Below are positions 11,499 through 27,867 of a stretch of 64,000 bases of DNA, piece after piece. The stretch comes from an uncultured Gammaproteobacteria bacterium (GTDB lineage: Bacteria > Patescibacteriota > Microgenomatia > Levybacterales > GWA1-39-11). Every line of letters begins with the position of its first letter. The first letter of the stretch is position 1. The notes under the pieces were generated by a model. It searched no databases and was not told where the DNA came from. It saw only the letters and a program-made list of their open reading frames with translations. The stretch lies in assembly GCA_964531275.1 (NCBI GenBank), contig CAZHDZ010000003.1, positions 33,208 to 97,207 on the forward strand, written 5' to 3'. A program made the translations under genes and the position numbers.

Positions 11499-14199
11499 AT
11501 TTTTGGGTATTTTCTTAATAGTAATTGCCTTCATTTTTGTTTTGCATTTTTTCGGAAAAATCTTCTTACCTACAGACATACTAAATTATTTTCCATCGTT
11601 CTCGCAAAGCTCCTGGACAAAACCCCACAACTCATTACTTGCAGATCCCGTTTTTCAATTTGAACCTTGGAGAATTTTTGCAAAAGAAGAGCTACTTCGT
11701 GGAAAAATTCCTATTTGGAACAATCTTAATGCAACGGGAGTTCCTTTCCTAGCTAACATGCAGAACGCAGTATTTTTTCCTCTTAATTTCTTTTATTATG
11801 TTTTTCCCCCATCAATATCTTTATTTTTGATAGCATCTTTAAAATATGTTCTTTTTGTATTGTTCTCAATTCTATATTTAAGACAGCTTAAAATTTCTAA
11901 GTTTTCAGCAGTACTTTCTTCCCTAATTGCATCCTCAAGCTATATGGTTATTTGGTTGCAGTGGCCCCAGACAAACGTTTTTCTTTGTCTACCACTAATA
12001 CTTTTGCTTATTGAAAAGCTATCTGTATCAAAAAACAAATTTCATTATTTAGCGTTACTTTCTGTTACGTATTTTATTGCAATTACTGGAGGTCATCCAG
12101 AAACTTTTTTTAATATCTTTTTAATTGCATGTATTTATATTTTGGTCGTAATTAAAAAGAGGAATATATTTCTTATTCATGCACTGGCAGTTTTTTGGGG
12201 GTGTGTGCTAGGTTCTTTCCTGCTAGTTCCATTTATAGAATATTTGGTAAATAGTTATGCTGCTTACGCTAGATCCATTTCGAAGCATGCTGAATTGCCG
12301 TTATGGTCATTTGTTTCCTTGCTGAATCCAATTGTACTGGGAGGTCCCCAATTTTCTTTGTATAAACCATTTTCGGCATTAACGAATTTTGCCGAAACAA
12401 GCGTAGTGTTTGTTGGCCCTATTGCTGCTATTTTAGCTATTCGCATGCTTAAGTTGAAATCGTTTGGAATAAAATTTATATTTCTTGCTTTTATTTGCTT
12501 TCTCTTAGCATACTTTCCGATCTTGTCAGTTATTCCAATAGTGCATTTAAATGCAAGCAGTAGATTCGCGATATTTATACCTTTCTTTCTTTCAATAGCG
12601 GCGGGTTTCTCAATTGATCAGTTGGACAAAAAAAGTTACGCAATTAAATTTAAGCAAACATATGGTATAGGTATTTTAGGATTATCTATGATTGCTCTTT
12701 TGTTTGTGCCCACCGCAACAAATACAGAATCATTTTTCATATTCTCGGTTTCTTATATACTATTTCTCTTATTTACTTCATTTCTCTTCTTCTTGGTGTT
12801 GAGTCATTCCATCAAATTCAAGCGACTCATATTGACTACTATTATTACTTTGCAGATTATCTTCCCAGTAATAAGCTATAACGGTTTTAATAATACTGAG
12901 TCCTATTACCCCAGAAACAGTTTTATTAATTCTTTAACCAGGATAAATGATGCAAGGGTAATACAAGTCGGGAACATAAATCTTCCAGCAGATATAAACA
13001 TGGCTTATGGAATTGAAAGCGCAGAGAATTACGACGCTTTGGATATAAAAAATTACAAGGATAATTTTGATAAGGCTTTTCCATTAAAAAATCACATGGG
13101 AATAGTTGATGAAGTTTCCCCATATGCTCTCAAAAAATTTGGAATAAATACCGTCATATCTGACTACGATATTAATTTAAGGAAAATTACAGTTCAAAAA
13201 AATATTGATCAAAGGATTAGTCTCAGAAAACCTCTTGTTGTCTATTTTGAAAATAAGGAAGGAAATTTAAAGGAAATACGGTTAATAACTCAAAATTTTA
13301 ATAGATCTAATAAATGCAAAGTGCGAATCCAGTTGCTCAATGGCAAACAACTTCTTTCTTCGACATTGTTCAATTGTTTAGATGCTCGAGACAATATGTA
13401 TATTACTGTTCCAATTAGTGGCTTAAGAATAGATAGTGCTAAAAAGTATCAACTAAGATTGGAGCCAGTAGGTTTTAATTCTACTAACGAAATTGCGTTG
13501 CGAGGATCAGGTGGTATTCCTTACGTAGACTTGTTGATTGAACAAAATCAACATGAATACAAACTTCTTTATAAAGGTACCAATGTAAGTATTTTTACAG
13601 TTAATTACTCAAGTAAGATTGATTATGGAGGTACTTCTTCTATTCTTGAAAATGAGACTAATAAGATTTCAATTGTAACGAATAGTAGTAACAATTCAAA
13701 ACTAACTCTCAAAAATTCTTTTTATCCTGGCTGGGAGGCTTATATAAATAATCGCAAAGTTATTATTATTGATAGAAATCCTTTCATGTCAGTTCAGGTT
13801 CCAAAAGGAGAAAATTTAGTGGAATTTATTTATAAGCCGAAGTCGCTATACTTAGGTTCAATAGTATCTTTTATTGGTTTTTTGGTTTTGACTACTTATT
13901 TTTTGAGAAAAATTATAAAGAACAAGAAGTTCTTCGGAATTAGGAAAAAAGTTTTTTTTGAAAAGCATGCAAAATATTTTTTTTCCGGAGCTATTATTTC
14001 CGAAATCATATTGGTGACTGGACTTAAAATCTTCTCATTTGAATTTTACTATCCTATGACAACTGCAATTAATTGGTTTACTGTTCATAAATATCCTCGA
14101 CAACAAGAATACTTTTTCTTTTTACTTTTATTCTTTATCCCACTTTTTTTCGGAATTTTAAGCTGGTTAATCCTAGTAAGAAGGGGATCAAGTAAATGA
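11491..14199 (+). CDS. Large (902 aa) YfhO-like GT-C membrane protein
   Basis: N-terminal LLADPVFQFEPW...GKIPIWNNLNATGVPFLANMQNAVFFP resembles the YfhO N-region. Many TM helices. A C-terminal FYPGWEAYINNRKV precedes a final TM helix. Confidence 0.5.
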   Translation: MNKFLGIFLIVIAFIFVLHFFGKIFLPTDILNYFPSFSQSSWTKPHNSLLADPVFQFEPWRIFAKEELLRGKIPIWNNLNATGVPFLANMQNAVFFPLNFFYYVFPPSISLFLIASLKYVLFVLFSILYLRQLKISKFSAVLSSLIASSSYMVIWLQWPQTNVFLCLPLILLLIEKLSVSKNKFHYLALLSVTYFIAITGGHPETFFNIFLIACIYILVVIKKRNIFLIHALAVFWGCVLGSFLLVPFIEYLVNSYAAYARSISKHAELPLWSFVSLLNPIVLGGPQFSLYKPFSALTNFAETSVVFVGPIAAILAIRMLKLKSFGIKFIFLAFICFLLAYFPILSVIPIVHLNASSRFAIFIPFFLSIAAGFSIDQLDKKSYAIKFKQTYGIGILGLSMIALLFVPTATNTESFFIFSVSYILFLLFTSFLFFLVLSHSIKFKRLILTTIITLQIIFPVISYNGFNNTESYYPRNSFINSLTRINDARVIQVGNINLPADINMAYGIESAENYDALDIKNYKDNFDKAFPLKNHMGIVDEVSPYALKKFGINTVISDYDINLRKITVQKNIDQRISLRKPLVVYFENKEGNLKEIRLITQNFNRSNKCKVRIQLLNGKQLLSSTLFNCLDARDNMYITVPISGLRIDSAKKYQLRLEPVGFNSTNEIALRGSGGIPYVDLLIEQNQHEYKLLYKGTNVSIFTVNYSSKIDYGGTSSILENETNKISIVTNSSNNSKLTLKNSFYPGWEAYINNRKVIIIDRNPFMSVQVPKGENLVEFIYKPKSLYLGSIVSFIGFLVLTTYFLRKIIKNKKFFGIRKKVFFEKHAKYFFSGAIISEIILVTGLKIFSFEFYYPMTTAINWFTVHKYPRQQEYFFFLLLFFIPLFFGILSWLILVRRGSSK

Positions 14200-15734
14200 A
14201 AAGATATATTTGGATATTAATTGCAGCATTTTTCCTACTGTTAGTAGGTTCAGGATTGGTAATAAGCCCATTTTATGGCGACATAAATGTAATTGATGAA
14301 GGCCAATTTGGAGGTTGGATTACTCACATGTTGCATGGCCAAAAACTATATGTTGACACTTATGCCGCGTATGGACCTCTTTATATTTACCCCTTATATT
14401 TTGCCTCAAAGCTGTTCGGACCTTCAGTTTTTTTGATAAGGATTATTTATTTAGTAATAGGAACTCTTGGAGCATTGATAATCGCGAAATGGGCAATGCA
14501 GCGATTGAAAATTAAGGAATATATCCAATATATGGTATTGTCTTTGCTTATTATTATTCCTGGATTTGGCATGAGACAAGGAATGGGACTTATTGCTCTT
14601 CTTGCTTTGGATAAGGGAATTGCGAAAAATAACCCAAAATGGTGGATGATAACAGGTGCTACTGTTTGTATTACTTTTCTCGTAAGTTCTGACATGGGCA
14701 TATTTGTAGGGATCATAAGTGCTCTGTCTGTATTCATAGCTTCGATCCATGCTGAGAAGCTTAAAAGCGTGTTAATTAACACTGCTGGCTACCTAGTGGG
14801 AATAGTTGTGCCTTTTTTGATATTTTCAATTCTAGCTTACCAAGATGGATGGCTAACAGCATATATCCAAACTGTAGTTGACGATTACATCTCTTATTCC
14901 GGAATGGGTCTTCCCAATGGTCAGGCATTTCCGAATCTCTTAACGCTCTTTTTTGAAGCTAATAGTCCATGGGCCATGGTAAAAGTTATTTTGTCACGCG
15001 AAGCAATCTTATATTGGAATTATTTGTTGTACTTCTGCCTAGTTGCATTTATCGTTATAAAATTTTTATTAAAAGGTAGACTCGTTGATACTTATCTTTC
15101 CTTCATTACAATTTTCGGCTTTATGTTGTCTATGATTCTTCTTGGAAGATTTGGCCATATTCCATTTGTTATACCAATTTCTTTTATACTTATGGGATAT
15201 TTATGTTCACGTGTCCTGCTGCTTCCAAAGGGCAAACTTAAAATAGTAATTATTGTTGCAATGGTGATTTTTTCTCTTCGGTTTGTCAGCCTATATAGGC
15301 CTCATTTCGGTAGAATATTAGAAATTCCATCCAATTTTTTTCAGAATACAGCAAGTGCGTCATATATAGGTCCCATATCTATTTCTCGTGAACAAGATGA
15401 GCAGTTTTTATTTGTTCAAAAATTTGTACATGAAAATGTGGAGAAAAATGAATCTATATTTTTTCTTGGAAATGAGCCAGTAATGTATCTTGTGGCAAAT
15501 AGGACAAATCCTTCACGATTTGATCTTCCGGAGGTAATTAATTCAAAAGCAAAACGTTATGAATTGATTGAATCCTTGGAAAAAAAAGAGACTAAATATA
15601 TCCTTTATAATAAATCTTCGTGGGATGTAGATGGAGTTTCTAACGCTCAAAGATTGCCCGAGCTTATGGAATATATAGGGCAAAAATATACGAGTTCTGA
15701 GCAGCAAGGATTTGTTATTTATAAGAGGCGTTAA
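14196..15734 (+). CDS. Polytopic membrane protein with a C-terminal soluble domain, possible GT-C-type transferase
   Basis: About 10 TM helices plus a roughly 130-aa C-terminal hydrophilic domain. The architecture parallels the other GT-C-like genes in the island, but no diagnostic motif was recognised. Confidence 0.35.
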   Translation: MKRYIWILIAAFFLLLVGSGLVISPFYGDINVIDEGQFGGWITHMLHGQKLYVDTYAAYGPLYIYPLYFASKLFGPSVFLIRIIYLVIGTLGALIIAKWAMQRLKIKEYIQYMVLSLLIIIPGFGMRQGMGLIALLALDKGIAKNNPKWWMITGATVCITFLVSSDMGIFVGIISALSVFIASIHAEKLKSVLINTAGYLVGIVVPFLIFSILAYQDGWLTAYIQTVVDDYISYSGMGLPNGQAFPNLLTLFFEANSPWAMVKVILSREAILYWNYLLYFCLVAFIVIKFLLKGRLVDTYLSFITIFGFMLSMILLGRFGHIPFVIPISFILMGYLCSRVLLLPKGKLKIVIIVAMVIFSLRFVSLYRPHFGRILEIPSNFFQNTASASYIGPISISREQDEQFLFVQKFVHENVEKNESIFFLGNEPVMYLVANRTNPSRFDLPEVINSKAKRYELIESLEKKETKYILYNKSSWDVDGVSNAQRLPELMEYIGQKYTSSEQQGFVIYKRR

Positions 15735-17015
15735 TTATTTAATTGAACTTCCTTTTATAATTTTTGGTATCGGAAGAGGTATTATAAAATCTCCCTTGTA
15801 GCCTTTACTTACTAATTTAGGTATAAGCTCATCTGCAATATGCCATGAAAAAAGAAGAGCATATTCTGGCTGGTTCTTAAATAAGAGTCCCTCATCCAGT
15901 ACTGGGATGAGAGTTCCTGGCATATATTTTCCAGTTTTGTATGAACCTTTAACTTCAACGATGCAATCTAGAATAGAGTCGTCGAGTCCAGCATAGCTTG
16001 CCAGAGTTGTACCTCTTGAGGGAGCACTTATCCCATAGATTCTCTTACCCTTCTTTTTAATAGATGTAAGTAGCGTGTTAAGTTCAAGCTTGGAGATAAC
16101 AACTTTCCTTTTAAAACTCTCAAATGATTTTATGTCTGCAACCACACTCTTTTCTTTTTCTAGCAATTTCTTTACTGTTGGCTTCACCTCATATTTACCT
16201 TTCAAAGCAGCATATACGCGTATTGAGCCGCCATGTGAAGGAATTTCCTTCGCATGAAATACTTCAAGATCATGTTGTTTTAGTAGGTTGATAATACTAA
16301 TTAACGAATAGTACCTGATGTGCTCATGATAAATGGTGTCATACTGCACAGTTTTTATGAGTGGCATTAGATAATGAGATTCCGAAATAAAAACTCCATC
16401 TGGTGTTAGTAAATTCTTAATATTGTTTGTTAACTCATGAACATGTTCAATATGTGCATAAGCGTTTGTTAGTGTGACAATTTTAGCCTTTCCATATTTC
16501 TTAATGACATTCTTAGAAACTTGGGTTGTAAAGTAGTCGATAATTGTAGGTATCCCTTTCTCAATTGCGAGTTTTCCAATTTCCTCTGGTGTAATACCAA
16601 GAACTTTGTGTTTATCTTTGAAATTGCTAAGAAGATTTCCGTCGTTCGAGCCAATATCAATAATTAAATCGTTTTTAGAAAGTGATATAAGTTTTGACGA
16701 TTCTTCATATAATTCAGCGAAATTTTCTCTAAGAACTTTCGTGGTACTGCTAGTGTATGGGTAGCTTTTTGGAAATAAGATAGTTGGATCTACGATTAGA
16801 CCCATCTGCACTAAGTGGCATTTCTTGCAATAAAGTAAGTTTGCCGGAAAGCTAGGAGAGACTGTTGGAACCGTACCTATTACGGGCATTGTATTAACAG
16901 GAGGAAGATACCCTAAAAATAGTATTGAATAAAGTTTGTTATATCCGCATGACTGGCAAGAAGTTACGGGTAGACTTTGTCCTGTATTGATAGTCTTTTT
17001 AAGAGCGTCCTGCAT
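15735..17015 (-). CDS. NDP-sugar C-methyltransferase-like (TylCIII family: Zn-ribbon Methyltransf_13 plus Methyltransf_14 architecture)
   Basis: N-terminal CQSCGYNKLYSILFLGYLPPVNTMP...CKKCHLVQ Cys4 pattern. IIDIGSNDGNLLSNFK is the SAM motif I. Length 426 aa is typical of the family. Confidence 0.6.
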   Translation of the reverse strand: MQDALKKTINTGQSLPVTSCQSCGYNKLYSILFLGYLPPVNTMPVIGTVPTVSPSFPANLLYCKKCHLVQMGLIVDPTILFPKSYPYTSSTTKVLRENFAELYEESSKLISLSKNDLIIDIGSNDGNLLSNFKDKHKVLGITPEEIGKLAIEKGIPTIIDYFTTQVSKNVIKKYGKAKIVTLTNAYAHIEHVHELTNNIKNLLTPDGVFISESHYLMPLIKTVQYDTIYHEHIRYYSLISIINLLKQHDLEVFHAKEIPSHGGSIRVYAALKGKYEVKPTVKKLLEKEKSVVADIKSFESFKRKVVISKLELNTLLTSIKKKGKRIYGISAPSRGTTLASYAGLDDSILDCIVEVKGSYKTGKYMPGTLIPVLDEGLLFKNQPEYALLFSWHIADELIPKLVSKGYKGDFIIPLPIPKIIKGSSIK

Positions 17016-17052
17016 TTAAGAAAAATATTGTATAACATTGAAGGCACTATAT

Positions 17053-18003
17053 CTATAGCAACTTCTTATACCATTCGCCTGTTTTAGAAAGGCCATCGTC
17101 TAAAGACATTTGTTGCCTATATCCCAATTTTTTTATTTTGGTAATGTCAGGGCACCTTCTTGGTGTACTGCCTTTTTTTAGTTCGCCTGTTACTATTTCT
17201 ATCTCCTTGTTAAGTATCTTTGCAATTTTCTTTGTAAGATTAAGGGAACTAATTTCGTCATCATTTCCTATGTTAAATGTACTTAAATTTTTTGACTTTG
17301 TAAAAACTTCAAAGAAAGCATGCGCAAAGTCATCTATGTACATATAAGATCGTGTTTCTGAGCCCTTTCCTTGTATTCTAAATTTGGTTTTTTTGTTGCC
17401 AATCTTTAACATCCGAAGAATTAATTCGGGAATTGCATGTTCAGTGCCCATGTCCGGTCCATATATATTGTGAGGGCGGAATATGACGGTCTTTTTAAGA
17501 TATTTTGATGCCACATGTATAGCAAGAAGTTCTGAAAGTATCTTTCCGCCTCCATACGAAAAACGTGGATTATATGGATCAGGAACCACCAGTGGAATTT
17601 CTTCTGGCGTGGGTACAATAGAGGGATTTTGATAGACCTCGGAACTTGATGCAAGGAATAATTCTTCCACATTATCAAGCTTGCAGGCTTCAATTACCGA
17701 GAGCATACCATTAACCCCAATATCAAGTACTAGATCGGGGTTTGAATAAAAAAACTTTGTTCCATTCACGTATGCAAGATGAATTATTGATGTGCAGTCT
17801 TTTGCTGCACTAACCACTTTTTTCGTATTACGAATATCACACTCTATAAAATCAAAATTGCCCTCTACATTTTTGAGCTTTGATAATTTTCCACGTTGGA
17901 GATTATCCAAAACCTTAATGTCGTAACCTTGCTGAATAAGACTCTCAACGATAGATGCGCCAATAAATCCAGCACCACCAGTTATCAATATTTTCTTTTT
18001 CAT
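17053..18003 (-). CDS. Extended-SDR NAD-dependent enzyme, UDP-glucuronate decarboxylase (UXS/ArnA C-domain)-like. The ORF-track N-terminal extension to 18099 is a translation of the repeat array and is rejected.
   Basis: ILITGGAGFIGAS motif; SSSEVY; PRFSYGGGK (YxxxK); IFRPHNIYGP. These align in order with ArnA decarboxylase-domain motifs (FPSTSEVYG, RWIYSVSK, LFRPFNWMGP) recalled from memory. Confidence 0.65.
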   Translation of the reverse strand: MKKKILITGGAGFIGASIVESLIQQGYDIKVLDNLQRGKLSKLKNVEGNFDFIECDIRNTKKVVSAAKDCTSIIHLAYVNGTKFFYSNPDLVLDIGVNGMLSVIEACKLDNVEELFLASSSEVYQNPSIVPTPEEIPLVVPDPYNPRFSYGGGKILSELLAIHVASKYLKKTVIFRPHNIYGPDMGTEHAIPELILRMLKIGNKKTKFRIQGKGSETRSYMYIDDFAHAFFEVFTKSKNLSTFNIGNDDEISSLNLTKKIAKILNKEIEIVTGELKKGSTPRRCPDITKIKKLGYRQQMSLDDGLSKTGEWYKKLL

Positions 18004-18049
18004 TTGACCATTATAGACACGGGAATATTTTTCTGCAAATAAGTCGTGT

Positions 18050-18273
18050 GGAAGTTTTAGCGCAGCCAAAACCGACGCAGGAAGTTTTAGCGCAGCCAAG
18101 GTTCTGCGAAGCAGGTTCTTATCATAGCCAAAAGCAGCCCAGGAAGTTTTAGCGCAGCCAAAACCGACGCAGGAAGTTTTAGCGCAGCCAAGGTTCTGCG
18201 AAGCAGGTTCTTATCATAGCCAAAAGCAGCCCAGGAAGTTTTAGCGCAGCCAAAACCGACGCAGGAAGTTTTA
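18050..18273. repeat. Tandem direct repeat, 92-bp period x about 2.4; each period contains two copies of the 20-mer GGAAGTTTTAGCGCAGCCAA
   Basis: Read directly. Periods start at 18050, 18142 and 18234. The array lies in the divergent intergenic region between the SDR gene (minus strand) and the dehydrogenase gene (plus strand). Confidence 0.85.
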
Positions 18274-18288
18274 CTTTGTTTTCTAAAT

Positions 18289-19596
18289 ATGGTATATGTT
18301 AACGATTACATTGGCAACACTATGCAAACAAAAAAACTTATTAACACTTCTGTAATTGGAATAGGTCGCGTAGGATTGCCGCTCGCATTAGTACTTGCAG
18401 ATAGTGGCCTAAACGTTTTTGGCATAGGGAGAAATGAAGAAAAGTGTGTACAAATTAATAAAGGGGAAATGCCCTTTATGGAGGATGGTGCTTCTAAGAT
18501 TCTTAAGAAAGTTGTTGGAAAGAATTTTGTAGCCACAACAGACTATTCATTTGTAAAAAAATCAGAGTATATTATCCTAACACTGGGCACCCCGATTGAC
18601 TCCAACATGAACCCGGTTTTATCGCAGATAGAAGCGGCGCTTGCAGAAATGAAGCCCTACTTAAAGAAAGGGCAAACTTTAATTTTAAGAAGTACAGTTT
18701 CTCCTGGAACGACACAGTACGTAAAATCAATAATTAACGGTATAAGAGAATTGTCTGTTGGTGTCAATTTTTTCGTAGCATTCTGTCCGGAAAGGATAGT
18801 GGAGGGTAAAGCTATTGACGAAATAAGACTTATCCCACAAATTATTGGCGGAGTTGATCTCAAAAGCACAAAAAAAGCTGAAAAACTATTTTCGCTTATT
18901 GGATGCACAACACTTAATAGCGATGATGTGTCAGCAGAGCTCGCAAAATTGTTTACAAATATGTATAGATATATTAACTTTGCTATTGCGAATGAATTTA
19001 TGGTTGTTGCAGACAACCACGGGAAGAATATCTACAGTATCATTGACTTGGTAAACTCAAGATACAAGAGGGGAGGACTAGCAAGTCCAGGTATGACCGC
19101 GGGTCCATGCCTATTTAAAGACGGATTTTTCCTTGTGTCAGATCTTCCCTACAATGATCTTATCACGACAAGCTGGAAGATAAATGAGTCGATCCCTCTG
19201 TTCTTAGTTAAAAAGTTGAAGAATCAAATCGATCTTGATGGAAAGAAGGCTGCAATCCTGGGGATGGCTTTTAAGGCAGAAATTGATGATATACGAGAGT
19301 CATTAAGTTTTAAAGTCCGAAAGGCTCTAATGCGAGAGAATATGAAAGTCGAGCTTCATGATCCGTATGTTAAGGAATATGCCTACCAAGAAATACGGAC
19401 TGATGTTTATGACGCATGCAAAGGAGCAGACTTGATATTTGTTGCAACAAATCACCTTGAATATAAATCCTTAGATATAGCAAAACTTAGAAAGGTAGTG
19501 AAGAAGAACTGCTACGTCTGCGATATTTGGAATGTTTTTGGAACTGGTAATATTTTCTTTAATATAAAAGATCTTAAAGTTTCGCGTAAGAGTTAA
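18289..19596 (+). CDS. Nucleotide-sugar dehydrogenase (UDP-glucose / UDP-ManNAc 6-dehydrogenase family); an alternative start lies at 18322
   Basis: VIGIGRVGLPLALVLA NAD-binding motif. The central catalytic Cys region is GGLASPGMTAGPC. The C-terminal UDPG_MGDP_dh_C-like region contains GMAFKAE..DIRES. Confidence 0.8.
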   Translation: MVYVNDYIGNTMQTKKLINTSVIGIGRVGLPLALVLADSGLNVFGIGRNEEKCVQINKGEMPFMEDGASKILKKVVGKNFVATTDYSFVKKSEYIILTLGTPIDSNMNPVLSQIEAALAEMKPYLKKGQTLILRSTVSPGTTQYVKSIINGIRELSVGVNFFVAFCPERIVEGKAIDEIRLIPQIIGGVDLKSTKKAEKLFSLIGCTTLNSDDVSAELAKLFTNMYRYINFAIANEFMVVADNHGKNIYSIIDLVNSRYKRGGLASPGMTAGPCLFKDGFFLVSDLPYNDLITTSWKINESIPLFLVKKLKNQIDLDGKKAAILGMAFKAEIDDIRESLSFKVRKALMRENMKVELHDPYVKEYAYQEIRTDVYDACKGADLIFVATNHLEYKSLDIAKLRKVVKKNCYVCDIWNVFGTGNIFFNIKDLKVSRKS

Positions 19597-20366
19597 GATG
19601 CAGTTACTTTTGGTATTTTAATCCTTAACTTCTTTTTTTCACTATTGTGAAGATGTCGCATCCCGTAAAAAAACCATTTTAGATATTCTTGAAACCAAGG
19701 TCCAAGAAAGAATGTTGATTTGCCTCCATACAATCTGTCAATAGAAATGATAGGCACTTCGCCGAGTCGAAATCCTTGAGCTTGTGCTTTAACGGCTAGT
19801 TCAAATACTACTGCCCACCCAATCGGCCTAGATTCAAGGTTAATTTTTTCAAATATGTCTCGGCGAAACATTTTAAATCCAGTTGTAGAGTCGGTAAAAA
19901 CAGATCCGCAAATCTTCTGAAACAATTTATTTCCAATATTTGAAACTATGCTTTCAACCATTGAGCCGCCCAATCTTCTTCCACCATGCGCATATCTAGT
20001 GCAGCTAATTAGGTCGCATCCCTTATCCATAAGATAAACCATATCTTCAATAGCCAGTGTTGGTCCTACATCATCAACAGCAAGAAGTAAAATATACTTA
20101 CCTTGGGATTTTGAAACCCCTGCTTTGATTGCATTGATAACGCCCCGACCCAATTTATTATGCACAGGTCTTACATGCATTTTTTTCTTCATAAGAGATT
20201 TAATGACTGGTAGGGAGTCGTCATCCGGGTGATCATATATGAAAAGAATTTCATGACTTACTGTTAATACGGCAGACAAAATTTTTACCATTAGTTCAAT
20301 GTTGATGCCTTCATTGCGTACGGGAAGAAGTATAGATAATGTAGGGATATTATTTTTTGTAACCAT
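19593..20366 (-). CDS. GT2 DPM1/ArnC-like polyprenyl-phosphate sugar transferase (soluble, 257 aa)
   Basis: LSILLPVRNEGINI...YDHPDDDS...AVDDVGPT (GT2 D..D motifs). It overlaps the upstream aminotransferase by 17 nt, implying the same operon. Confidence 0.7.
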   Translation of the reverse strand: MVTKNNIPTLSILLPVRNEGINIELMVKILSAVLTVSHEILFIYDHPDDDSLPVIKSLMKKKMHVRPVHNKLGRGVINAIKAGVSKSQGKYILLLAVDDVGPTLAIEDMVYLMDKGCDLISCTRYAHGGRRLGGSMVESIVSNIGNKLFQKICGSVFTDSTTGFKMFRRDIFEKINLESRPIGWAVVFELAVKAQAQGFRLGEVPIISIDRLYGGKSTFFLGPWFQEYLKWFFYGMRHLHNSEKKKLRIKIPKVTAS

Positions 20367-21450
20367 AGAATGTTTTGATAAGAGCTATTACTTTTAAAAT
20401 GTCCTTATCGGTTAATGTGAAGGCTGAGGGAAGCCATAGTGTTTTTGGGGAGAGCAGGGAGGCATTGGTAAAATTGCCTTTGTAATTCTTATAGTATTTT
20501 TGTTTATGAATGGGGAACCAAAAACGCCTACAGTCCGCACCGTTCTTCTTTAAGAAATCATCTAGAGCATTTCTCTGTTCGCATACTGCATCCGTCCATA
20601 GTGGCAATTCTTCATTTGCGATATCAAACGGGAGAATTTCAATCTCCTTAACATCTTTCAATTTTTCCTTATATAGTATGTGATTCTTTTTCATCTTTTT
20701 TATTCTTGCAGAAAGCATAGTGAGTTGTCCAAGTCCAACGGCGGCCTGCAGGTCAGTAAACTTAAAATTGTAGCCAATGCCAGTATGAATATCATCCCCA
20801 CCCGTACCTCTTTTATCTCGGCCCTGATCTTTTAGCTCTACTATTTTTTTATAGATAGATTTATCGTCGGTAACTATAATTCCTCCTTGACCTGTAGTGA
20901 TTATTTTTGCCGGAGAAAATGAAAAACAACCTGTAACTCCAAACGTACCAAGGTATTTATTGCCCTTTTTTGACATTAGTGCTTCGGCAGCATCTTCAAT
21001 GACTGAAATATTATATTTTTTGGAAAGTCTTAATATCGTCTTCATATCTGCACCTCTGCCACTAACATGAACTGGAATAATTGCCCTTGTTTTTTTAGTG
21101 ATAACTTTTTCACAAGCGGAGATGTTGATGGTGAGAGTTGATGGATCGACATCGCAAAGTACAGCTCTTGCTCCGGTCATTTCGACTGCATTGGCCGTAG
21201 CGATAAAGGTAAGATCCGGCACAATTACTTCGTCCCCTGGCCCTATTCCAATAGCTTTCATTGATAAAAACATTGCGCTTGTTGCGTTAGGTACGGCAAG
21301 TGCATATTTTGCTCCAACTAGGTCAGCTATCTTATTTTGGAACTCAATAGTTAAAGGTCCCTCATTGGGAAATGCACTATTCAAGACTTTCTTTATATAT
21401 TTATACTCCTGTTTGCCGATTACCGGCTCCCACCATGCTATTTTTTTCAT
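20350..21450 (-). CDS. DegT/DnrJ/EryC1/StrS-family PLP-dependent sugar aminotransferase (ArnB-like); start taken at the internal MKKIAWWEP Met
   Basis: ALAVPNATSAMFLSMKAIGIGPGDEVIVPDLTFIATANAV and a later SFS.AK lysine region, typical of the DegT family. Confidence 0.85.
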   Translation of the reverse strand: MKKIAWWEPVIGKQEYKYIKKVLNSAFPNEGPLTIEFQNKIADLVGAKYALAVPNATSAMFLSMKAIGIGPGDEVIVPDLTFIATANAVEMTGARAVLCDVDPSTLTINISACEKVITKKTRAIIPVHVSGRGADMKTILRLSKKYNISVIEDAAEALMSKKGNKYLGTFGVTGCFSFSPAKIITTGQGGIIVTDDKSIYKKIVELKDQGRDKRGTGGDDIHTGIGYNFKFTDLQAAVGLGQLTMLSARIKKMKKNHILYKEKLKDVKEIEILPFDIANEELPLWTDAVCEQRNALDDFLKKNGADCRRFWFPIHKQKYYKNYKGNFTNASLLSPKTLWLPSAFTLTDKDILKVIALIKTFYGYKK

Positions 21451-21451
21451 A

Positions 21452-22237
21452 TTATTTGAACCCCTTGAAATACTTCTCTTCGACAATAACCATTTTCTTT
21501 TTCCCTATGTAAAAACTTGCAGGAGGAAATGGCTCGAATGTCATGGACCGTATAAAGTTGTATATCTTTTTTCCTTTCCAATTCCAATCAATCTCACCTC
21601 CATTGGGTAATCCCTTAGGAAAGTAGGATGCGCCTCTTTTATTTTGCGGTTGGGATTTTGGAATTGTGTTGTTTATCCAGCTGTCTATAAATTCGTTAAA
21701 AATTTCAGTTCCAAGTCTAGTAAAGTTGTCATAAACACTTTTTGCTGTATCAAAAGGCTCAACCTTAAATTTTTTCTGTATGATAATTGGTCCTGTATCT
21801 ATGCCCATGTCCATCCAATGCGCTGTTACTCCAATGTGCTTTTCGTTATTAAATAAGGCGTGCACTGTTGAATAGCGGCCTCTATATTTGGGAAGTAAAG
21901 CTGGGTGTATATTGAAGCACCCAAGTTTTGGAATCTTTAGTATTTGCTCCGGAATTAAATGTGTCCCACCAATGCTAAATATAATATCTGGATGTAAATC
22001 TATTATTTGGTTCTGAAGTTTTTTATCATTTAGTCGAGCACCCTGTATTAGTGGCAGTTTTCTTTTCTTTGCAAACTTAACAAGAGAGTCGTGCCAGGTA
22101 TCTACTCCCTTATCATCAAGATTTGCTATTACGAGATTTGGTTTGACACCCTTTTTTAAAAGTATTTTTAAGCAATCTACGCCAATTTGTTTGCCTCCTA
22201 TATATATTATCTTTTTACTTACCATATGATATCCCAA
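21452..22237 (-). CDS. Standalone sugar N-formyltransferase (Fmt/ArnA N-domain family)
   Basis: PDIIFSIGGTHLIPEQIL...CFNIHPALLPKYRGRYSTVHALFNNEKHIGVTAHWMDMGIDTGPII aligns with the Formyl_trans_N catalytic region (N..H..LLPKYRG, D.G). A C-terminal Formyl_trans_C-like segment follows. Confidence 0.8.
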   Translation of the reverse strand: MGYHMVSKKIIYIGGKQIGVDCLKILLKKGVKPNLVIANLDDKGVDTWHDSLVKFAKKRKLPLIQGARLNDKKLQNQIIDLHPDIIFSIGGTHLIPEQILKIPKLGCFNIHPALLPKYRGRYSTVHALFNNEKHIGVTAHWMDMGIDTGPIIIQKKFKVEPFDTAKSVYDNFTRLGTEIFNEFIDSWINNTIPKSQPQNKRGASYFPKGLPNGGEIDWNWKGKKIYNFIRSMTFEPFPPASFYIGKKKMVIVEEKYFKGFK

Positions 22238-22355: not shown

Positions 22356-23345
22356 GTGTATAATCGTATGAACATGTTGGCGAATAGCTATACCCAAAGC
22401 GATCGAGTATTTTTTAAAGGAAAAAATATTTTGCTAACTGGTGGAAATGGCTTTCTAGGAAGATACGTCAAAGAACAACTCATCCAACTTAAGCCTCGAT
22501 CTATTTTAATTCCGGATTCCAAGAAAGATGATTTAAGAATTGTTAAAAATGTAAAAAGACTTTTAAAGGACATTGATATTGTAATTCACCTAGCAGCAAA
22601 CGTGGGTGGGATAGAATATAACAAGAACTATCCGGGAACGCTTTTCTATGAGAACCTCATAATGGGTACTCAGCTGATGGAGGAAGCAAGAAAAGCTAGT
22701 GTGATTAAATTCGTTGCTCTTGGCACTATATGCGCATATCCAAAATTTGCGCCTATACCATTCAAAGAAGAGGATATCTGGAATGGTTATCCAGAAGAGA
22801 CAAATGCCCCTTATGGATTAGCAAAGAAAATGCTTCTTGTCCAATCACAGGCTTATCGTGCTCAGTTCAATTTCAATTCAATTTATCTCTTGCCCGTTAA
22901 TTTATATGGACCTGGTGACAACTTTAATGAGAAATCTTCACATGTAATTCCGGCATTAATCAAGAAGATCGAATTAGCAAAAAATAATAACATTCCTGTT
23001 GTTGAAGTCTGGGGAACTGGTAATGCAACGAGAGAATTCTTGTATGTGGAGGATTGTGCTCGCGCAATAGTTTTGGCTACTGCAAGATATGAGAGTTCGG
23101 AGCCAGTTAATTTAGGGGCCGGTTTTGAAATTTCAATTAAGGAACTTGCCTTAAAGATAAAAAAAATATGCAATTACAAAGGTGAATTGAAGTTTGATGC
23201 TAAGATGCCTGACGGACAACCAAGAAGGATGCTTGATACAAAAAGAGCTGTTAAAGGATTTGGATTTAAGGCTGTAACACCATTTTCAACTGGGCTTAAA
23301 AATACTGTGGAATGGTATAAGAAGAATTACAAGAAATTAGCTTAA
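22356..23345 (+). CDS. GDP-L-fucose synthase-like NDP-4-keto-6-deoxy-sugar 3,5-epimerase/4-reductase (SDR). The track start is GTG 22356; ATG 22368 or 22374 is more likely.
   Basis: HLAANVGGI; ALGTICAYPK; NAPYGLAKK (YxxxK); LPVNLYGPGDNF; SHVIPALIKK. These match the Fcl/WcaG pattern from memory. Confidence 0.6.
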   Translation: MYNRMNMLANSYTQSDRVFFKGKNILLTGGNGFLGRYVKEQLIQLKPRSILIPDSKKDDLRIVKNVKRLLKDIDIVIHLAANVGGIEYNKNYPGTLFYENLIMGTQLMEEARKASVIKFVALGTICAYPKFAPIPFKEEDIWNGYPEETNAPYGLAKKMLLVQSQAYRAQFNFNSIYLLPVNLYGPGDNFNEKSSHVIPALIKKIELAKNNNIPVVEVWGTGNATREFLYVEDCARAIVLATARYESSEPVNLGAGFEISIKELALKIKKICNYKGELKFDAKMPDGQPRRMLDTKRAVKGFGFKAVTPFSTGLKNTVEWYKKNYKKLA

Positions 23346-24059
23346 TTTCGCTGTGCCTGCCTTTATTATAGACTGCAATATTAGCGCCCCGTCTTTTATT
23401 GGCGAAACTTGAGAGTGGCCAGTATTTCTTCTCGTATAGCTTACCGGTACTTCTACTAGCTTGTATTTAAGTCTTACGCTTTTTATAACAGTTTCTGCTT
23501 CGTATCCGAAATGACGTTCTTTTATTTTAAGTTTAGTGAATTTATTTCTTCTAATAGCTTTAAATCCGGCAAGAGAATCTGTAATGTATCTACCGCATGC
23601 AATTGATGTTGCAACCGAAAGTAAAAAATTTCCTAGAGTTCTGACAAATGGTGCATCCGCTTGGTTTTTTCGTTTTCCAATGGCTATGTCAGCTCCTTTA
23701 TCAAGAGCGTTGACTAAAAGTTGGATTTCAGTTGGTCTGAATTGGTAATCAGCATCTATTTGAACAATATATTCACCATTTGATTTAAGAGCTGCATCGC
23801 GGAAGTCAATTCCTTTACCTCTTTTTTTACCAAATTCAAAAACAATAGCTTTTTCTTTCTTTGCAATTTCTACAGTTCTATCTTGTGAACCACCATCAGC
23901 AACAACAATTTCATATGTGTAATTTTTTTTCATAGTATTAATTTGGCGAATCATCTTGCCAATACTTTTTTCTTCGTTGTAGGTGGGGAGTATGATGCTA
24001 ACTTTAGGAATAATTTTTTTACCTGTTTTCATCTGTAAGATTTTACTATAATATACCAT
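23337..24059 (-). CDS. GT2 DPM1/GtrB-like glycosyltransferase (soluble); an alternative start lies at 24032
   Basis: VSIILPTYNEEKSIGKMI...VVADGGSQDRT...IDADYQ (GT2 motifs). Confidence 0.7.
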   Translation of the reverse strand: MVYYSKILQMKTGKKIIPKVSIILPTYNEEKSIGKMIRQINTMKKNYTYEIVVADGGSQDRTVEIAKKEKAIVFEFGKKRGKGIDFRDAALKSNGEYIVQIDADYQFRPTEIQLLVNALDKGADIAIGKRKNQADAPFVRTLGNFLLSVATSIACGRYITDSLAGFKAIRRNKFTKLKIKERHFGYEAETVIKSVRLKYKLVEVPVSYTRRNTGHSQVSPIKDGALILQSIIKAGTAKLS

Positions 24060-24077
24060 ACACTTCTAATTGCAAGA

Positions 24078-24992
24078 ATGAAAAGAATTATAGTTACCGG
24101 AGGCTCAGGATATGTGGGGGCAGAGGTTGTAGAGTTGCTTATTAAAAAAAAGTATTCAGTTTTGGTTGTTGATAAGCAATCTATCTACAAAAATTCAAAA
24201 GCCACATTTCTAAAAAAAGACCTTTTATCTGAGAAAGGCTTAGCGCGTGTTTTTCAACAAACTGATTCAGTAATACACTTAGCTGCAGAAGTCGGTGGTG
24301 TTTCTTTTGCTAATAATTATCCTGCAACAATCATTCACAACAATGCATTAATTGATTTGAACTGCATCAAAGCTGCGGCTGCTGCACATGTTAGAAAATA
24401 TTTGTATGTTTCGAGCTCTCTTGTCTATGAACAAGCAATAAAATTTCCGCTAAAGGAAGCTGATACTTTACATATTCCGCCCCCACACTTGTCCTACGGT
24501 GCAGAAAAGCTTTTTGGGGAGTCGTTATGTGAAGCTTTTTTTCAAGAGTTTGATTTGCAATATGCTGTATGTAGGCTTTTTAATGTATATGGAATAAATG
24601 CTGCGGGTTTTGGAGATCCCAATGGACATGTTATCCCAGATATCATTAGCAAGGTGAAAGAGTCATCTGGAAAGGTTGAGATCTGGGGGAGAAAAAATAT
24701 AAGAAGAAATTTCACACATGTTTCGGACATTGCACGGGGAATTGTAGCGGCACTCGAGAATGAAAATAAAAATGAAGTATTTAATATTGCAGATAAAAAT
24801 GAGTACTCAATTGAAGATGTGACATTGACTTTATGGAAACTTTTAAGAAAGCCTGGATTGCCAAATTTTTATTATGTTAAGAAAAACAAACAAGACGTAT
24901 TAAGAAATTTTGCATCAGTTAATAAAGCAATGAAGATACTAAATTGGAGAACTAAAACGTCCTTGCAAGATGGATTAAAAGCTATGATTTAA
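24078..24992 (+). CDS. NAD-dependent epimerase/dehydratase (SDR)
   Basis: VTGGSGYVGAEV Rossmann motif; YVSSSLVY; LSYGAEK (YxxxK). Confidence 0.7.
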   Translation: MKRIIVTGGSGYVGAEVVELLIKKKYSVLVVDKQSIYKNSKATFLKKDLLSEKGLARVFQQTDSVIHLAAEVGGVSFANNYPATIIHNNALIDLNCIKAAAAAHVRKYLYVSSSLVYEQAIKFPLKEADTLHIPPPHLSYGAEKLFGESLCEAFFQEFDLQYAVCRLFNVYGINAAGFGDPNGHVIPDIISKVKESSGKVEIWGRKNIRRNFTHVSDIARGIVAALENENKNEVFNIADKNEYSIEDVTLTLWKLLRKPGLPNFYYVKKNKQDVLRNFASVNKAMKILNWRTKTSLQDGLKAMI

Positions 24993-25885
24993 TTTGTCTT
25001 CGCGATAACTGCAAACTCATCCTTGGGTAAAAAAGACATCCGAATTTTAGTAAGTAGTTTTAGTGATGACATTTTTTTAAATTGATTTTTAAATAAAGGT
25101 GAATTTTCGGATAACCGATCAAGAAAATATGAAAGAGGGTAATCACGTCTATAAAGATATATTTCCACTATCTTAAATCCTGCTTTTTCTAAAAGTAATG
25201 AAAGATTTTCTGGAGTAAAAAGTGTTATATGCATTCTCACAAAAAATGGATGACGATCGCCGAGAATTCTAACCAGAAAGTTACTAATGTTGGGTGTGCC
25301 AAGTATTAATAGGCCATCTTTATTAAGAATTTTTTTTGCCAAAAGAATCTCACTCATGGGGTCTGGCACATGTTCAATGACATCCCACATAGTCACAATA
25401 TCGAATTTCTTGTTTTTTATATCTGAAAGCGTTTTTCCGTATATAGGAAAACCTTTTTTCTTAACATAACTTGTCGCCCATCTGCTTGGGTCAAGCCCTG
25501 CAACTTTAAAACCGTTTTTAGAAGCAGCCTCAATAAAAAAACCACAAAAACACCCCACGTCTAGAAGTGTTCCTTTCTTTCTATGCGTCTTTAGTTTTTT
25601 TACATGTTTTTTGATGAGATGCATTCTATATTTTTTAGTTTTCAAATAATCGGGATCTTCGACAGCTTCATATCCTTCCATAAATTTATCCAAATTTTCA
25701 CGGGGATTTGTAAAGATAGTTTTGCAGTCTTTACATTCAACTATCCTTGCATGTTTTTTAATGCCGGTAAGAGTATTCCTTAGATCATTCTGGATTATAT
25801 CTGGATTAAGATCACCTGTTTTAAGTGTGCTTTTAAAAAGTATTCTTTTTCTACTTGAATTGCAAACTGGACATTCTTTTTTCAT
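24989..25885 (-). CDS. SAM-dependent methyltransferase with an N-terminal Cys4 zinc ribbon
   Basis: CPVCNSS...CKDCKTIF; LLDVGCFCGFF (motif I); DIVTMWDVIEHV. Confidence 0.7.
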   Translation of the reverse strand: MKKECPVCNSSRKRILFKSTLKTGDLNPDIIQNDLRNTLTGIKKHARIVECKDCKTIFTNPRENLDKFMEGYEAVEDPDYLKTKKYRMHLIKKHVKKLKTHRKKGTLLDVGCFCGFFIEAASKNGFKVAGLDPSRWATSYVKKKGFPIYGKTLSDIKNKKFDIVTMWDVIEHVPDPMSEILLAKKILNKDGLLILGTPNISNFLVRILGDRHPFFVRMHITLFTPENLSLLLEKAGFKIVEIYLYRRDYPLSYFLDRLSENSPLFKNQFKKMSSLKLLTKIRMSFLPKDEFAVIAKTN

Positions 25886-25927
25886 AATACTGATGTTTAT
25901 TGATGCTATAATAGCGTATCTTCATTC

Positions 25928-27424: not shown

Positions 27425-27867
27425 GAAAAATAGTTCTTATTCTTTTTGTCAGCACCTTGTACTTATGGTTTGGGATAAGTATTGTTAGGACTTTTATTAA
27501 TCTGGGAAAATTTGTTGTGTCAGAAATGCATCTTGTGCTGTCTTCCGAAGAGCAAAGGAGGCGCGAAACATACGGGGAACTCTATGATTTCTGCATTTTC
27601 GTGAATGATAATACAACAGAAAGGTCTACAATATATTTTTTGACAAGTGATGTGCATGCTTTTTATTTTTGTAGATACGAGGTTTATCCTCGGAAAATGT
27701 TTTTAATAAAAGATCTTAATAGTACTAGTGCATATACAATAAAAGAAAATGATTATCTACTCGTACTTCAGTCGAATAATATACAGTTAATTAATGATGC
27801 ATATGGTTTTGGGCTTATAAAAAAGTATAAGCCTAGTTCTTTAGTTGGGGCTCTTTACAGAAAATGA
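27421..27867 (+). CDS. Hypothetical protein, one N-terminal TM helix plus a soluble domain
   Basis: ORF translationally coupled to both neighbours (4-nt overlaps). No recognisable motif. Confidence 0.3.
   Translation: MRKIVLILFVSTLYLWFGISIVRTFINLGKFVVSEMHLVLSSEEQRRRETYGELYDFCIFVNDNTTERSTIYFLTSDVHAFYFCRYEVYPRKMFLIKDLNSTSAYTIKENDYLLVLQSNNIQLINDAYGFGLIKKYKPSSLVGALYRK

Follow-up and report, generated by a model that had tools for sequence, protein, structure and literature searches.

A widespread Arn-like gene cassette from a Levybacteria-like bacterium that may make a lipid-linked, C-methyl-branched 4-amino-4-deoxy-pentose for extracytoplasmic glycosylation

Several described systems tailor a nucleotide-bound sugar before it is transferred to its acceptor. 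The Arn pathway (PmrHFIJKLM) of Escherichia coli, Salmonella and Burkholderia does so for lipid A, and in Burkholderia the two activities of ArnA occur as a separate formyltransferase and a separate decarboxylase. In pathways leading to branched sugars, methylation of the nucleoside diphosphate (NDP)-4-keto-sugar precedes transamination or reduction; the D-mycarose 3-C-methyltransferase and TcaB9 methylate the carbon adjacent to the 4-keto group of the NDP-sugar. In the biosynthesis of calicheamicin and AT2433, the dehydrogenase CalS8, the decarboxylase CalS9 and the aminotransferase CalS13 lead to a 4-amino-4-deoxy-pentose. Three-component glycosylation systems are marked by an enzyme for the charging of polyprenyl phosphate, by a flippase and by a transferase of the GT-C fold (PMC11127046). 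In this work, we describe a cassette of six genes that combines elements of these systems and lies in a 64,000-nucleotide stretch of contig CAZHDZ010000003.1, referred to here as the window. It encodes a C-methyltransferase, an extended short-chain dehydrogenase/reductase (SDR), a nucleotide-sugar 6-dehydrogenase, a family 2 glycosyltransferase (GT2), a DegT aminotransferase and a formyltransferase.

On balance, we think it probable, with some reserve, that this locus represents, in Levybacteria, a cassette which is widespread and shared horizontally and which supplies a lipid-linked, N-acylated, C-methyl-branched 4-amino-4-deoxy-pentose for extracytoplasmic glycosylation. From family and fold assignments, catalytic motifs and gene linkage, we infer a scheme (substrate, order of steps, decarboxylation, site of methylation, lipid carrier and acceptor) that would run as follows. 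The dehydrogenase would oxidise C6 of a common nucleotide hexose, and the SDR would then oxidise C4 and decarboxylate the product to an NDP-4-keto-pentose. The C-methyltransferase would methylate a carbon adjoining the keto group, most likely C3, after which the DegT aminotransferase would aminate C4. The formyltransferase would formylate the amine, a step for which a hexapeptide acyltransferase would stand in most other lineages. The GT2, which has no transmembrane helix, would move the sugar onto polyprenyl phosphate at the membrane surface; after flipping, a GT-C enzyme (here probably the polytopic protein adjacent to the C-methyltransferase) would pass it to a protein or wall acceptor.

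The unity of the cassette is most evident from its conservation. A scan with an alignment of the GT2, covering one genome per species of the Genome Taxonomy Database, gave 145 confirmed matches, so that the cassette is carried by at least 145 species-level genomes; 80 loci were fetched, all of them from metagenome-assembled genomes (MAGs) and numbered with the prefix L. Adjacency was counted by tblastn with the window proteins in 54 non-redundant loci with sufficient flank. There, the GT2 gene is accompanied by the dehydrogenase in 52/54 loci, the aminotransferase in 51/54, the SDR in 49/54, the C-methyltransferase in 47/54 and the formyltransferase in 5/54; the C-methyltransferase gene directly follows that of the SDR in 47/54. 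The commonest order, found in 35/54 loci, is dehydrogenase, acyltransferase, aminotransferase, GT2, SDR, C-methyltransferase. A Woesearchaeota MAG has this order with a hexapeptide acyltransferase and, at its end, a PMT_2 protein, and in an Omnitrophota MAG a PMT-like GT-C protein, dehydrogenase, formyltransferase, aminotransferase, GT2, SDR and C-methyltransferase follow one another on a single strand. In a Levybacteria MAG, the formyltransferase, aminotransferase and GT2 are followed by an inverted dehydrogenase, the SDR, the C-methyltransferase and then the three membrane proteins that are also seen in the window. The proposal that the six genes constitute one functional module, made in a sequence-only reading of the window, is borne out by this synteny, which is kept across phyla and domains.

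The N-acyl step is the variable part of the module. In most loci, the gap between the dehydrogenase and aminotransferase genes is filled by a hexapeptide-repeat acyltransferase of about 182 residues. Of all 80 loci, 8 have the formyltransferase and 52 the hexapeptide acyltransferase in this slot, and none has both. Six of the 8 formyltransferase loci are of Patescibacteria type, one is from Omnitrophota and one from Altiarchaeales. The N-acyl step is thus swappable in situ, formyl against acetyl-type. As a separate observation, 28 loci encode a Nudix hydrolase of about 191 residues (Nudix box GHVEKGETPEEAARRELTEETG) upstream of the dehydrogenase gene of the cassette and about 3.6 kb upstream of the GT2 gene (e.g., L073 7554..8120), and 25 of these loci have it on the same strand; neither the window nor the Levybacteria-type loci contain it.

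Carriers of the cassette belong to many lineages. Among bacteria they include Patescibacteria, Omnitrophota, Acidobacteriota (many), Verrucomicrobiota, Planctomycetota, Chloroflexota, Nitrospirota, Nitrospinota, Leptospirales and others; among archaea, Woesearchaeota, Nanoarchaeota, Altiarchaeota, Methanoperedens and Methanosarcinales. Between the window and archaeal loci, identity amounts to 59% for the aminotransferase, 62-65% for the GT2, 49% for the SDR and 62-67% for the C-methyltransferase, and the latter enzyme is 53-67% identical across domains. Such high identities between organisms of different domains point to horizontal spread of the cassette. We found no publication describing it, although literature coverage was incomplete and this is absence of evidence only.

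The chemistry proposed for the cassette starts with its dehydrogenase, which forms a distinct subfamily and is nearest to UDP-ManNAc dehydrogenases. Among NCBIfam models, TIGR03026 matches with 328 bits (over its cut-off), followed by the archaeal UDP-ManNAc dehydrogenase (233 bits), AglM (146), TuaD (128) and E. coli Ugd (34). A profile of 40 cassette dehydrogenases searched against the PDB gives 4r16 (255 bits), Cap5O (247), 3g79 (195), CalS8 (180) and, as the best UDP-glucose dehydrogenase (UGDH), a match of 167 bits; 4r16 and Cap5O are UDP-ManNAc dehydrogenases and outrank every UDP-glucose dehydrogenase. The sequence-only reading had taken the enzyme as a candidate for the Ugd step and had named grouping with UDP-ManNAc dehydrogenases beforehand as one of the outcomes that would speak against its proposal; this grouping is the one obtained. 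The Woesearchaeota locus L002 (3825..6796) encodes a UDP-glucose 6-dehydrogenase (TuaD model, 584 bits), a nucleotidyltransferase and an SDR directly upstream of the cassette, and the presence of a separate, genuine UDP-glucose 6-dehydrogenase there means that the cassette enzyme is not simply the organism's Ugd. The dehydrogenase slot is filled by two lineages that are about 35% identical to each other. The window type is found in six Levybacteria-like loci, has about 420-460 residues and is inverted relative to the other cassette genes; the common type has about 396 residues and is co-directional (e.g., L004 6900..8090). The pattern suggests that the gene was replaced while its function was kept. 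Because the dehydrogenase was kept although two such distant lineages fill its slot, C6 oxidation appears to be part of the pathway. As for the substrate, an N-acetyl-hexosamine nucleotide (UDP-GlcNAc/UDP-ManNAc type) is slightly favoured over UDP-Glc by similarity, and also because no nucleotidyltransferase is encoded in the cassette and UDP-GlcNAc is at hand in all organisms. An assignment from active-site motifs was tried and gave no decision, which is a point on the other side: the window enzyme is a mosaic in which AGPCLFKD is UGDH-like and CPERI is WecC-like, and both lineages carry AGPCLxKD together with CPERI/V.

The SDR is the enzyme for which decarboxylation is proposed. An S-S-S-E-V-Y motif is invariant across 73 cassette SDRs. 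Its Ser-x-Glu aligns with the TSE of ArnA, hUXS1, 8vr2 and Gmd, the Y-x3-K is likewise shared, and the PRxxY before the catalytic Tyr and the TRAF motif match UXS. The motif is unlike both the TDE of RmlB-type dehydratases and the S-S-T, S-S-C or S-S-L of epimerases. Within the window, the protein is the best match to the C-terminal domain of E. coli ArnA (24% identity; ArnA model, 60 bits against a cut-off of 777). We propose that it is a 4-oxidase/decarboxylase making an NDP-4-keto-pentose. It is read as a decarboxylase and not as a 4,6-dehydratase because the dehydrogenase is obligatory in the cassette and because C6, once oxidised to a carboxylate, cannot also become a methyl group.

Several observations weigh against this assignment. 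Searched against the PDB, the SDR family profile places 8rdg (176 bits), a GDP-sugar 4-epimerase (PMC12171764), and 8vr2 (165) above UXS1 (156), with dTDP-glucose dehydratases at no more than 141 bits and ArnA outside the top 35. The top NCBIfam models are LegB and dTDP-glucose 4,6-dehydratase, and Ser-x-Glu also occurs in GDP-mannose 4,6-dehydratase (Gmd). The case for decarboxylation, which we infer, draws mainly on the conserved partner dehydrogenase. The UXS- or ArnA-C-like character that had been suggested for this SDR thus holds for its motifs (Ser-x-Glu, PRxxY, TRAF), and its overall profile ranking is ambiguous. Two other functions were considered and rejected. A 4-epimerase, suggested by the top match 8rdg and by analogy with TviB/TviC, is at odds with the invariant Glu, at a position occupied by Thr, Ser or Leu in epimerases, and also with the aminotransferase and the C-methyltransferase, which need a keto sugar. 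An RmlB-type 4,6-dehydratase would carry T-D-E, which is missing here, and a separate RmlB-like gene is present in the window (7170..8198).

A dehydratase is nevertheless at the centre of one rival explanation, which we regard as unlikely. According to it, the SDR is a 4,6-dehydratase, the product is an NDP-4-formamido-4,6-dideoxy-hexose (N-formyl-perosamine- or viosamine-like, possibly 3-C-methylated, of kansosamine type) for a Wzx/Wzy glycan, and the dehydrogenase serves another sugar. Besides the NCBIfam ranking of the SDR, the best described PDB relatives of the aminotransferase agree with it, being perosamine synthetases (188 bits against 166 for ArnB), as does the formyltransferase, whose match to the GDP-perosamine formyltransferase 5vys is about as good as that to ArnA. 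6-Deoxy sugars are the known substrates of TylC3/TcaB9-type methyltransferases, and the window contains Wzx (5852..7072), a Wzy_C protein (32278..33471) and the RmlB-like SDR. However, Wzx and Wzy are 10-13 kb distant from the cassette and do not accompany it in a conserved manner, the dehydrogenase is linked as tightly as any cassette gene and was retained through replacement by a protein of about 35% identity, and the cassette offers neither a nucleotidyltransferase nor another glycosyltransferase for a separate uronic acid. Furthermore, the match of the SDR to Gmd reaches 36 bits only, and the sole cassette glycosyltransferase has the fold of polyprenyl-phosphate glycosyltransferases. We likewise do not favour an earlier fallback proposal of this kind, in which a 6-deoxy-amino-hexose would enter a Wzx/Wzy glycan, in view of the dehydrogenase linkage and the lack of T-D-E in the SDR.

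The three remaining tailoring enzymes fit the proposed branched amino-pentose. The C-methyltransferase matches 4rv9, the D-mycarose 3-C-methyltransferase, with 215 bits over residues 12-421, TcaB9 with 165 and 5t64 with 147; Methyltransf_13, Methyltransf_23 and Methyltransf_14 each exceed the Pfam cut-off, and a four-Cys zinc motif (CQSC...CKKC) is present. By these features it belongs to the TylC3/TcaB9/KijD1 family, and at the level of sequence it is a predicted S-adenosylmethionine-dependent NDP-4-keto-sugar C-methyltransferase of TylC3/TcaB9 type. The sugar is expected to be branched because this 3-C-methyltransferase is conserved in the cassette. The aminotransferase matches 7b0m (195 bits), perosamine synthetase, 8vr3/8vr5 (171), ArnB and WbpE (148). 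Its identity to E. coli ArnB is 33%, the pyridoxal phosphate (PLP) lysine is aligned (FSFSPAKIIT with FSFHAIKNIT), and the ArnB NCBIfam model gives 204 bits against a cut-off of 631. It is a predicted PLP-dependent DegT nucleotide-sugar aminotransferase that probably acts at C4. The formyltransferase remains below threshold with the NCBIfam models PRK06988 (183 bits, cut-off 316) and ArnA (159 bits, cut-off 777); its best PDB match is the formyltransferase domain of ArnA (106 bits), followed by WlaRD (104). Compared with residues 1-305 of E. coli ArnA, it is 27% identical, FNIHPALLPKYRGR aligning with FNLHGSLLPKYRGR and DTG with DAG, so that the catalytic Asn-x-His and Asp are aligned. It is a predicted stand-alone sugar N-formyltransferase resembling the N-terminal domain of ArnA.

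A second rival explanation, which we judge improbable, supposes that the carboxylate is kept: the SDR would oxidise C4 (or C3) with no decarboxylation, giving a 4-formamido (or 3-amino) C-methyl hexuronic acid on the lipid carrier, akin to the di-N-acyl-uronic acids of WbpA/B/E/D. The grouping of the dehydrogenase with N-acetyl-hexosamine dehydrogenases and the WbpE match of the aminotransferase agree with this, and the commonest cassette, with its dehydrogenase, hexapeptide N-acetyltransferase and aminotransferase, has the enzyme classes of WbpA, WbpD and WbpE. The oxidase of the Wbp pathway, on the other hand, is WbpB, of the Gfo/Idh/MocA type and not an extended SDR, and the cassette has no such gene. 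In addition, 4-keto-hexuronates are beta-keto acids, which decarboxylate readily, and the SDR has the Glu of the decarboxylases.

The last enzyme of the cytoplasmic part, the GT2, is the most conserved gene of the cassette. Its family comprises 1919 cluster representatives at E<=1e-10, and the best 120 of these are 58-100% identical, about 257 residues long, and derived from bacteria and archaea. In an AlphaFold2 model with a pLDDT of 84, the top 24 Foldseek matches in the PDB are all Pyrococcus dolichol phosphate mannose synthase (DPMS), Salmonella ArnC or GtrB, with TM-scores of 0.6-0.7, and sequence matches in the PDB are confined to DPMS, ArnC and GtrB. On the level of fold, the modelled protein is therefore consistent with charging of polyprenyl phosphate at the cytoplasmic face. 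The predicted ArnC/DPM1-like nature of this enzyme thus stands as regards the fold of polyprenyl-phosphate glycosyltransferases; the membrane helices of ArnC are missing, and ArnC itself is closer to another GT2 of the window, that of 240 residues (30% identity, 73 bits), than to the cassette protein (24% identity over 171 residues, 47 bits; ArnC model, 39 bits against a cut-off of 529).

These findings leave some room for a third rival explanation, in which the GT2 is soluble or peripheral, attaches the modified sugar straight to an acceptor in the cytoplasm (small molecule, lipid head group or nascent glycan) and has nothing to do with the polytopic neighbours. We consider it the least likely of the three. 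The following points count against the lipid-carrier step and for this rival. The GT2 has no membrane helix (maximum 19-residue hydropathy of 1.84 against 2.62 for ArnC); soluble GT2s such as GpgS and mannosylglycerate synthase appear from Foldseek rank 25 with similar TM-scores; and the membrane proteins flanking the cassette are not one family, since the 61 polytopic flankers sort into 34 clusters of unrelated sequence, with a PMT_2 match in 2/10 of those sampled. Moreover, no flippase was found: the window has no genuine small multi-helix open reading frame (ORF), and the cassette clusters contain no conserved small membrane protein. Two small GtrA-like flippase candidates in the window were rejected as antisense artefacts inside other genes. 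Against this rival stand the 24 best structural matches and all PDB sequence matches, which are DPMS, GtrB and ArnC, and a large polytopic protein (>=380 aa, >=8 hydrophobic segments) directly beside the cassette in 53 loci, with PMT/PMT_2 proteins flanking it in L002, L004, L037 and L079 and all classifiable flankers being GT-C or PMT. DPM1 of the human type also lacks a transmembrane helix. In the model, the C-terminal end of the cassette GT2 forms an aromatic-rich helix (residues 221-239).

Returning to the lipid-carrier pathway, its last step would need a GT-C partner. Three GT-C genes of the window (9297..11498, 30686..32281 and 56071..57594) had been named for this role, and their PMT_2 matches are borne out by Pfam; none of them is the best partner, and the 512-residue polytopic protein adjacent to the cassette, which has no Pfam match, fits better. 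In its AlphaFold2 model (pLDDT 86.5), the top 28 Foldseek matches in the PDB are all GT-C proteins: STT3/AglB/PglB, AftA, ArnT (5f15, TM-score 0.50), Emb and PMT. An invariant D34-E35 lies just past its first membrane helix, the place where GT-C catalytic aspartates are positioned (PMC11127046). By hhalign, it is distantly related to GT-C proteins that flank the cassette in L004 (68-70%) and L027/L028 (88%), and its family gives a probability of 0.05% with E. coli ArnT. Modelling thus makes it a probable candidate for an extracytoplasmic transferase using the lipid-linked sugar. A single conserved GT-C family beside the cassette was considered and rejected in view of the 34 clusters; a link to the protein of the window exists for L004 and L027/L028 only. 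The trio of membrane proteins to which it belongs (9297..15734) follows the cassette in the Levybacteria-type loci L005, L006, L012 and L057, and it is uncertain whether the two other members, the GT2-PMT_2 fusion and the YfhO-like protein, belong to the cassette. If PMT_2, YfhO and PTPS_related proteins and orphan polytopic proteins are all counted, the window has about 8 candidate GT-C enzymes.

The sequence-only reading had found no ArnD deformylase, and this observation is confirmed and extended. With E. coli proteins as queries, tblastn gave no significant match to ArnD, ArnE/F or ArnT in the window, and among 85 related loci ArnD and ArnT were found in 0 each and an ArnE match in one locus only.

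The host is a Levybacteria-like member of the candidate phyla radiation (CPR), as judged by its sequences. The window encodes an F-type ATP synthase, DnaE, GatA/B, MurT/GatD and PolX, and the named DnaE homologues at 70-86% identity are all from Candidatus Levybacteria/Levyibacteriota or labelled Patescibacteria. The GT2 of the closest relative, L006, is 87% identical to that of the window. L006, L007, L040 and L057 agree in gene content and order with the Levybacteria window, and their MAG label 'uncultured Gammaproteobacteria bacterium' is probably wrong. CPR bacteria are not known to synthesise lipopolysaccharide (LPS); as had been noted from the sequence, lipid A and LPS gene families (lpx included) are absent from the ORFs scanned in the 64-kb window. 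The cassette is not restricted to organisms with no LPS, given that the carriers found are mostly diderm phyla or archaea, mostly with the acetyl-type transferase.

The layout of the locus is given in Table 1. The coordinates and strands first read for the six cassette ORFs are correct, and profile searches give each of them a strong family match; with long ORFs and E-values down to 1e-97, chance is no concern for these matches. The same gene set was recovered by an independent gene call on a 7-kb metagenome contig of identical sequence, in which the formyltransferase is likely to start at the ATG at 22225, giving 257 aa. The 17-nt overlap between the aminotransferase and GT2 genes was rightly described. 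That of 3 nt between the formyltransferase and aminotransferase genes was not, as the formyltransferase stop codon (TAA, 21454..21452) and the aminotransferase ATG (21450..21448) are separated by a 1-nt spacer. The dehydrogenase and GT2 genes are convergent and overlap by 4 nt, and those of the 512-residue polytopic protein and the C-methyltransferase are convergent with zero gap. The three membrane protein genes form one operon, with start/stop overlaps of 8 nt and 4 nt and the gene of the 512-residue protein as the last.

Table 1. Features of the cassette, its neighbours and a second gene module in the window.
Feature	Position	Strand	Evidence or remark
C-methyltransferase	15735..17015	-	Pfam Methyltransf_13/23/14, 1.2e-37
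Extended SDR	17053..18003	-	Pfam Epimerase, 1e-42
Nucleotide-sugar 6-dehydrogenase	18289..19596	+	UDPG_MGDP_dh N, central and C domains
GT2 glycosyltransferase, 257 aa	19593..20366	-	Pfam Glycos_transf_2
DegT aminotransferase	20350..21450	-	Pfam DegT_DnrJ_EryC1, 7e-97
Formyltransferase	21452..22237	-	Pfam Formyl_trans_N, 2.6e-26, and partial C domain
GT-C-fold polytopic membrane protein, 512 aa	14196..15734	+	AlphaFold2 model, Foldseek; no Pfam/NCBIfam match
GT2-PMT_2 fusion	9297..11498	+	Pfam
YfhO-like protein, 902 aa	11491..14199	+	Pfam
Perfect tandem repeat	18050..18273	no strand	SDR/dehydrogenase divergent intergenic region
GDP-fucose-synthase-like SDR	22356..23345		Second module
AglJ/DPM/ArnC-like GT2, 240 aa	23337..24059		Second module; best E. 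coli ArnC match of the window
Another SDR	24078..24992		Second module
Methyltransferase	24989..25885		Second module
Weak-PMT_2 polytopic protein	25928..27424		Second module
148-aa protein, one helix, no family	ORF at 27421		Second module
Polytopic protein, 440 aa	within 22356..29186		Second module

The tandem repeat between the divergent SDR and dehydrogenase genes consists of 2.4 copies of a 92-nt unit with sub-repeats of 30-32 nt. The 20-mer GGAAGTTTTAGCGCAGCCAA occurs in it in 5 copies and nowhere else in the window. A longer SDR ORF with its start at a TTG at 18099 was rejected, since the added stretch is non-coding and only reads through this repeat. L006 has a different perfect repeat, of 33 nt x 2.7, in the equivalent slot (L006 12125..12214), and AAAACCGACG is common to both. 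The occurrence of a different repeat in the same slot makes an assembly artefact less likely and favours an element that is regulatory or variable in copy number; the repeat may be regulatory.

Two further gene groups of the window deserve mention. The second module adjoining the cassette (22356..29186) is conserved in the Levybacteria-type loci L005-L007 and L057 and is probably a second lipid-linked sugar system. At 59815..62023, near the PMT_2 protein at 56071..57594, a PF14397 'sugar-transfer associated' ATP-grasp protein (2e-70) with a C-terminal aspartyl-protease-like region adjoins a 7TM_transglut membrane protein.

Very little is known of the surface chemistry of CPR and DPANN cells, which probably governs their attachment to hosts. 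The cassette provides a compact and testable gene set in this respect: between Levybacteria and archaea, the identity of the core enzymes is 49-67%, and each of the seven proteins is an ordinary enzyme, soluble or membrane-bound, that is accessible to expression and assay. The sugar predicted here would stand out by its mass and so offer a handle for glycoproteomics of enrichment cultures, while the formyl/acetyl swap and the variable GT-C partner amount to a natural experiment in the recombination of donor and acceptor modules. If the dehydrogenase and decarboxylase act on an N-acetylated uronate with the C-methyltransferase intervening, this would be a new branch of nucleotide-sugar metabolism. 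More tentatively, with somewhat less than an even chance, we suggest that the product is a previously undescribed sugar, a 4-formamido (elsewhere 4-acetamido) 4-deoxy-3-C-methyl-pentose, possibly with a 2-acetamido group as well, which is handed via polyprenyl phosphate to lineage-specific GT-C enzymes, and that the cassette is a mobile, cross-domain surface-decoration module of CPR bacteria, of DPANN and methanogen-related archaea and of many uncultured diderm phyla. No glycan is known to contain such a sugar, and this tells against the pathway proposed for the cassette in general. If the suggestion is true, the module would count among the small number of conserved cell-envelope traits that link these groups.

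Of the described systems, the Arn pathway is the one that was originally proposed for this locus. The likeness lies in the proposed sequence of reactions: C6 oxidation, C4 oxidation/decarboxylation, C4 transamination, N-formylation, transfer by a GT2 to polyprenyl phosphate, and a GT-C enzyme on the outside. It extends to the aminotransferase and to the formyltransferase with its catalytic N, H and D, at the identities to ArnB and the N-terminal domain of ArnA given above. The differences are as follows. The dehydrogenase is not Ugd-like, the SDR is distant from the C-terminal domain of ArnA, the GT2 is no orthologue of ArnC and is devoid of its two C-terminal membrane helices, homologues of ArnD, ArnE/F and ArnT are absent from the window, and a conserved C-methyltransferase is added. 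The acceptor in the Arn system is lipid A, of which the host of the cassette is taken to be free, and most cassettes acetylate. Thus, what stands of the original proposal is its chemical logic (dehydrogenase, SDR, aminotransferase, formyltransferase, GT2 and nearby GT-C proteins), and what falls is the Arn pathway itself: the cassette works like that pathway yet lacks most of the features by which its members are recognised, and it is a different pathway. In this sense, Arn-type chemistry extends beyond the modification of lipid A.

The resemblance to secondary metabolism is of another kind. With the TylC3/MtfC, TcaB9 and KijD1 pathways for macrolide, tetronate and kijanimicin sugars, the cassette shares the three-domain architecture (zinc ribbon, SAM-binding Rossmann domain and C-terminal domain) and zinc site of the C-methyltransferase; those enzymes act on dTDP-2,6-dideoxy-4-keto-hexoses in actinomycete secondary metabolism, whereas the cassette enzyme is linked to a dehydrogenase and a lipid-carrier GT2 in primary cell-surface loci from uncultured phyla. 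The aminopentose route of calicheamicin and AT2433 has the same succession of dehydrogenase, decarboxylase and C4 aminotransferase, with CalS8 among the matches of the dehydrogenase profile. It differs in using a soluble glycosyltransferase that acts on an aglycone, and it is not known to involve a lipid carrier, N-formylation or C-methylation. The structures 8vr2 (SDR, with T-S-E) and 8vr3/8vr5 (DegT) count among the nearest relatives of known structure for the cassette SDR and aminotransferase. They may be the uronate 4-oxidase/decarboxylase and aminotransferase of the triacetamido-L-arabinose pathway of Psychrobacter cryohalolentis, a system not known to include C-methylation or a lipid-carrier step; if so, they would set a direct precedent for the decarboxylation of an N-acetylated uronate.

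Finally, the three-component systems (GtrA/GtrB/GtrC, CsbB/GtcA/YfhO and the Citrobacter pentofuranose system; PMC11127046) resemble the locus in the GT2 fold and the nearby GT-C fold that are present in the window. They use a ready-made nucleotide sugar or phosphoribosyl pyrophosphate (PRPP), whereas the cassette brings five dedicated sugar-tailoring enzymes along with its GT2; this GT2 is not anchored in the membrane, a linked flippase gene is missing, and the GT-C partner varies with the lineage. Taken together, the cassette is probably a surface glycosylation system of the three-component type equipped with its own dedicated, Arn-like pathway to a branched amino-pentose.

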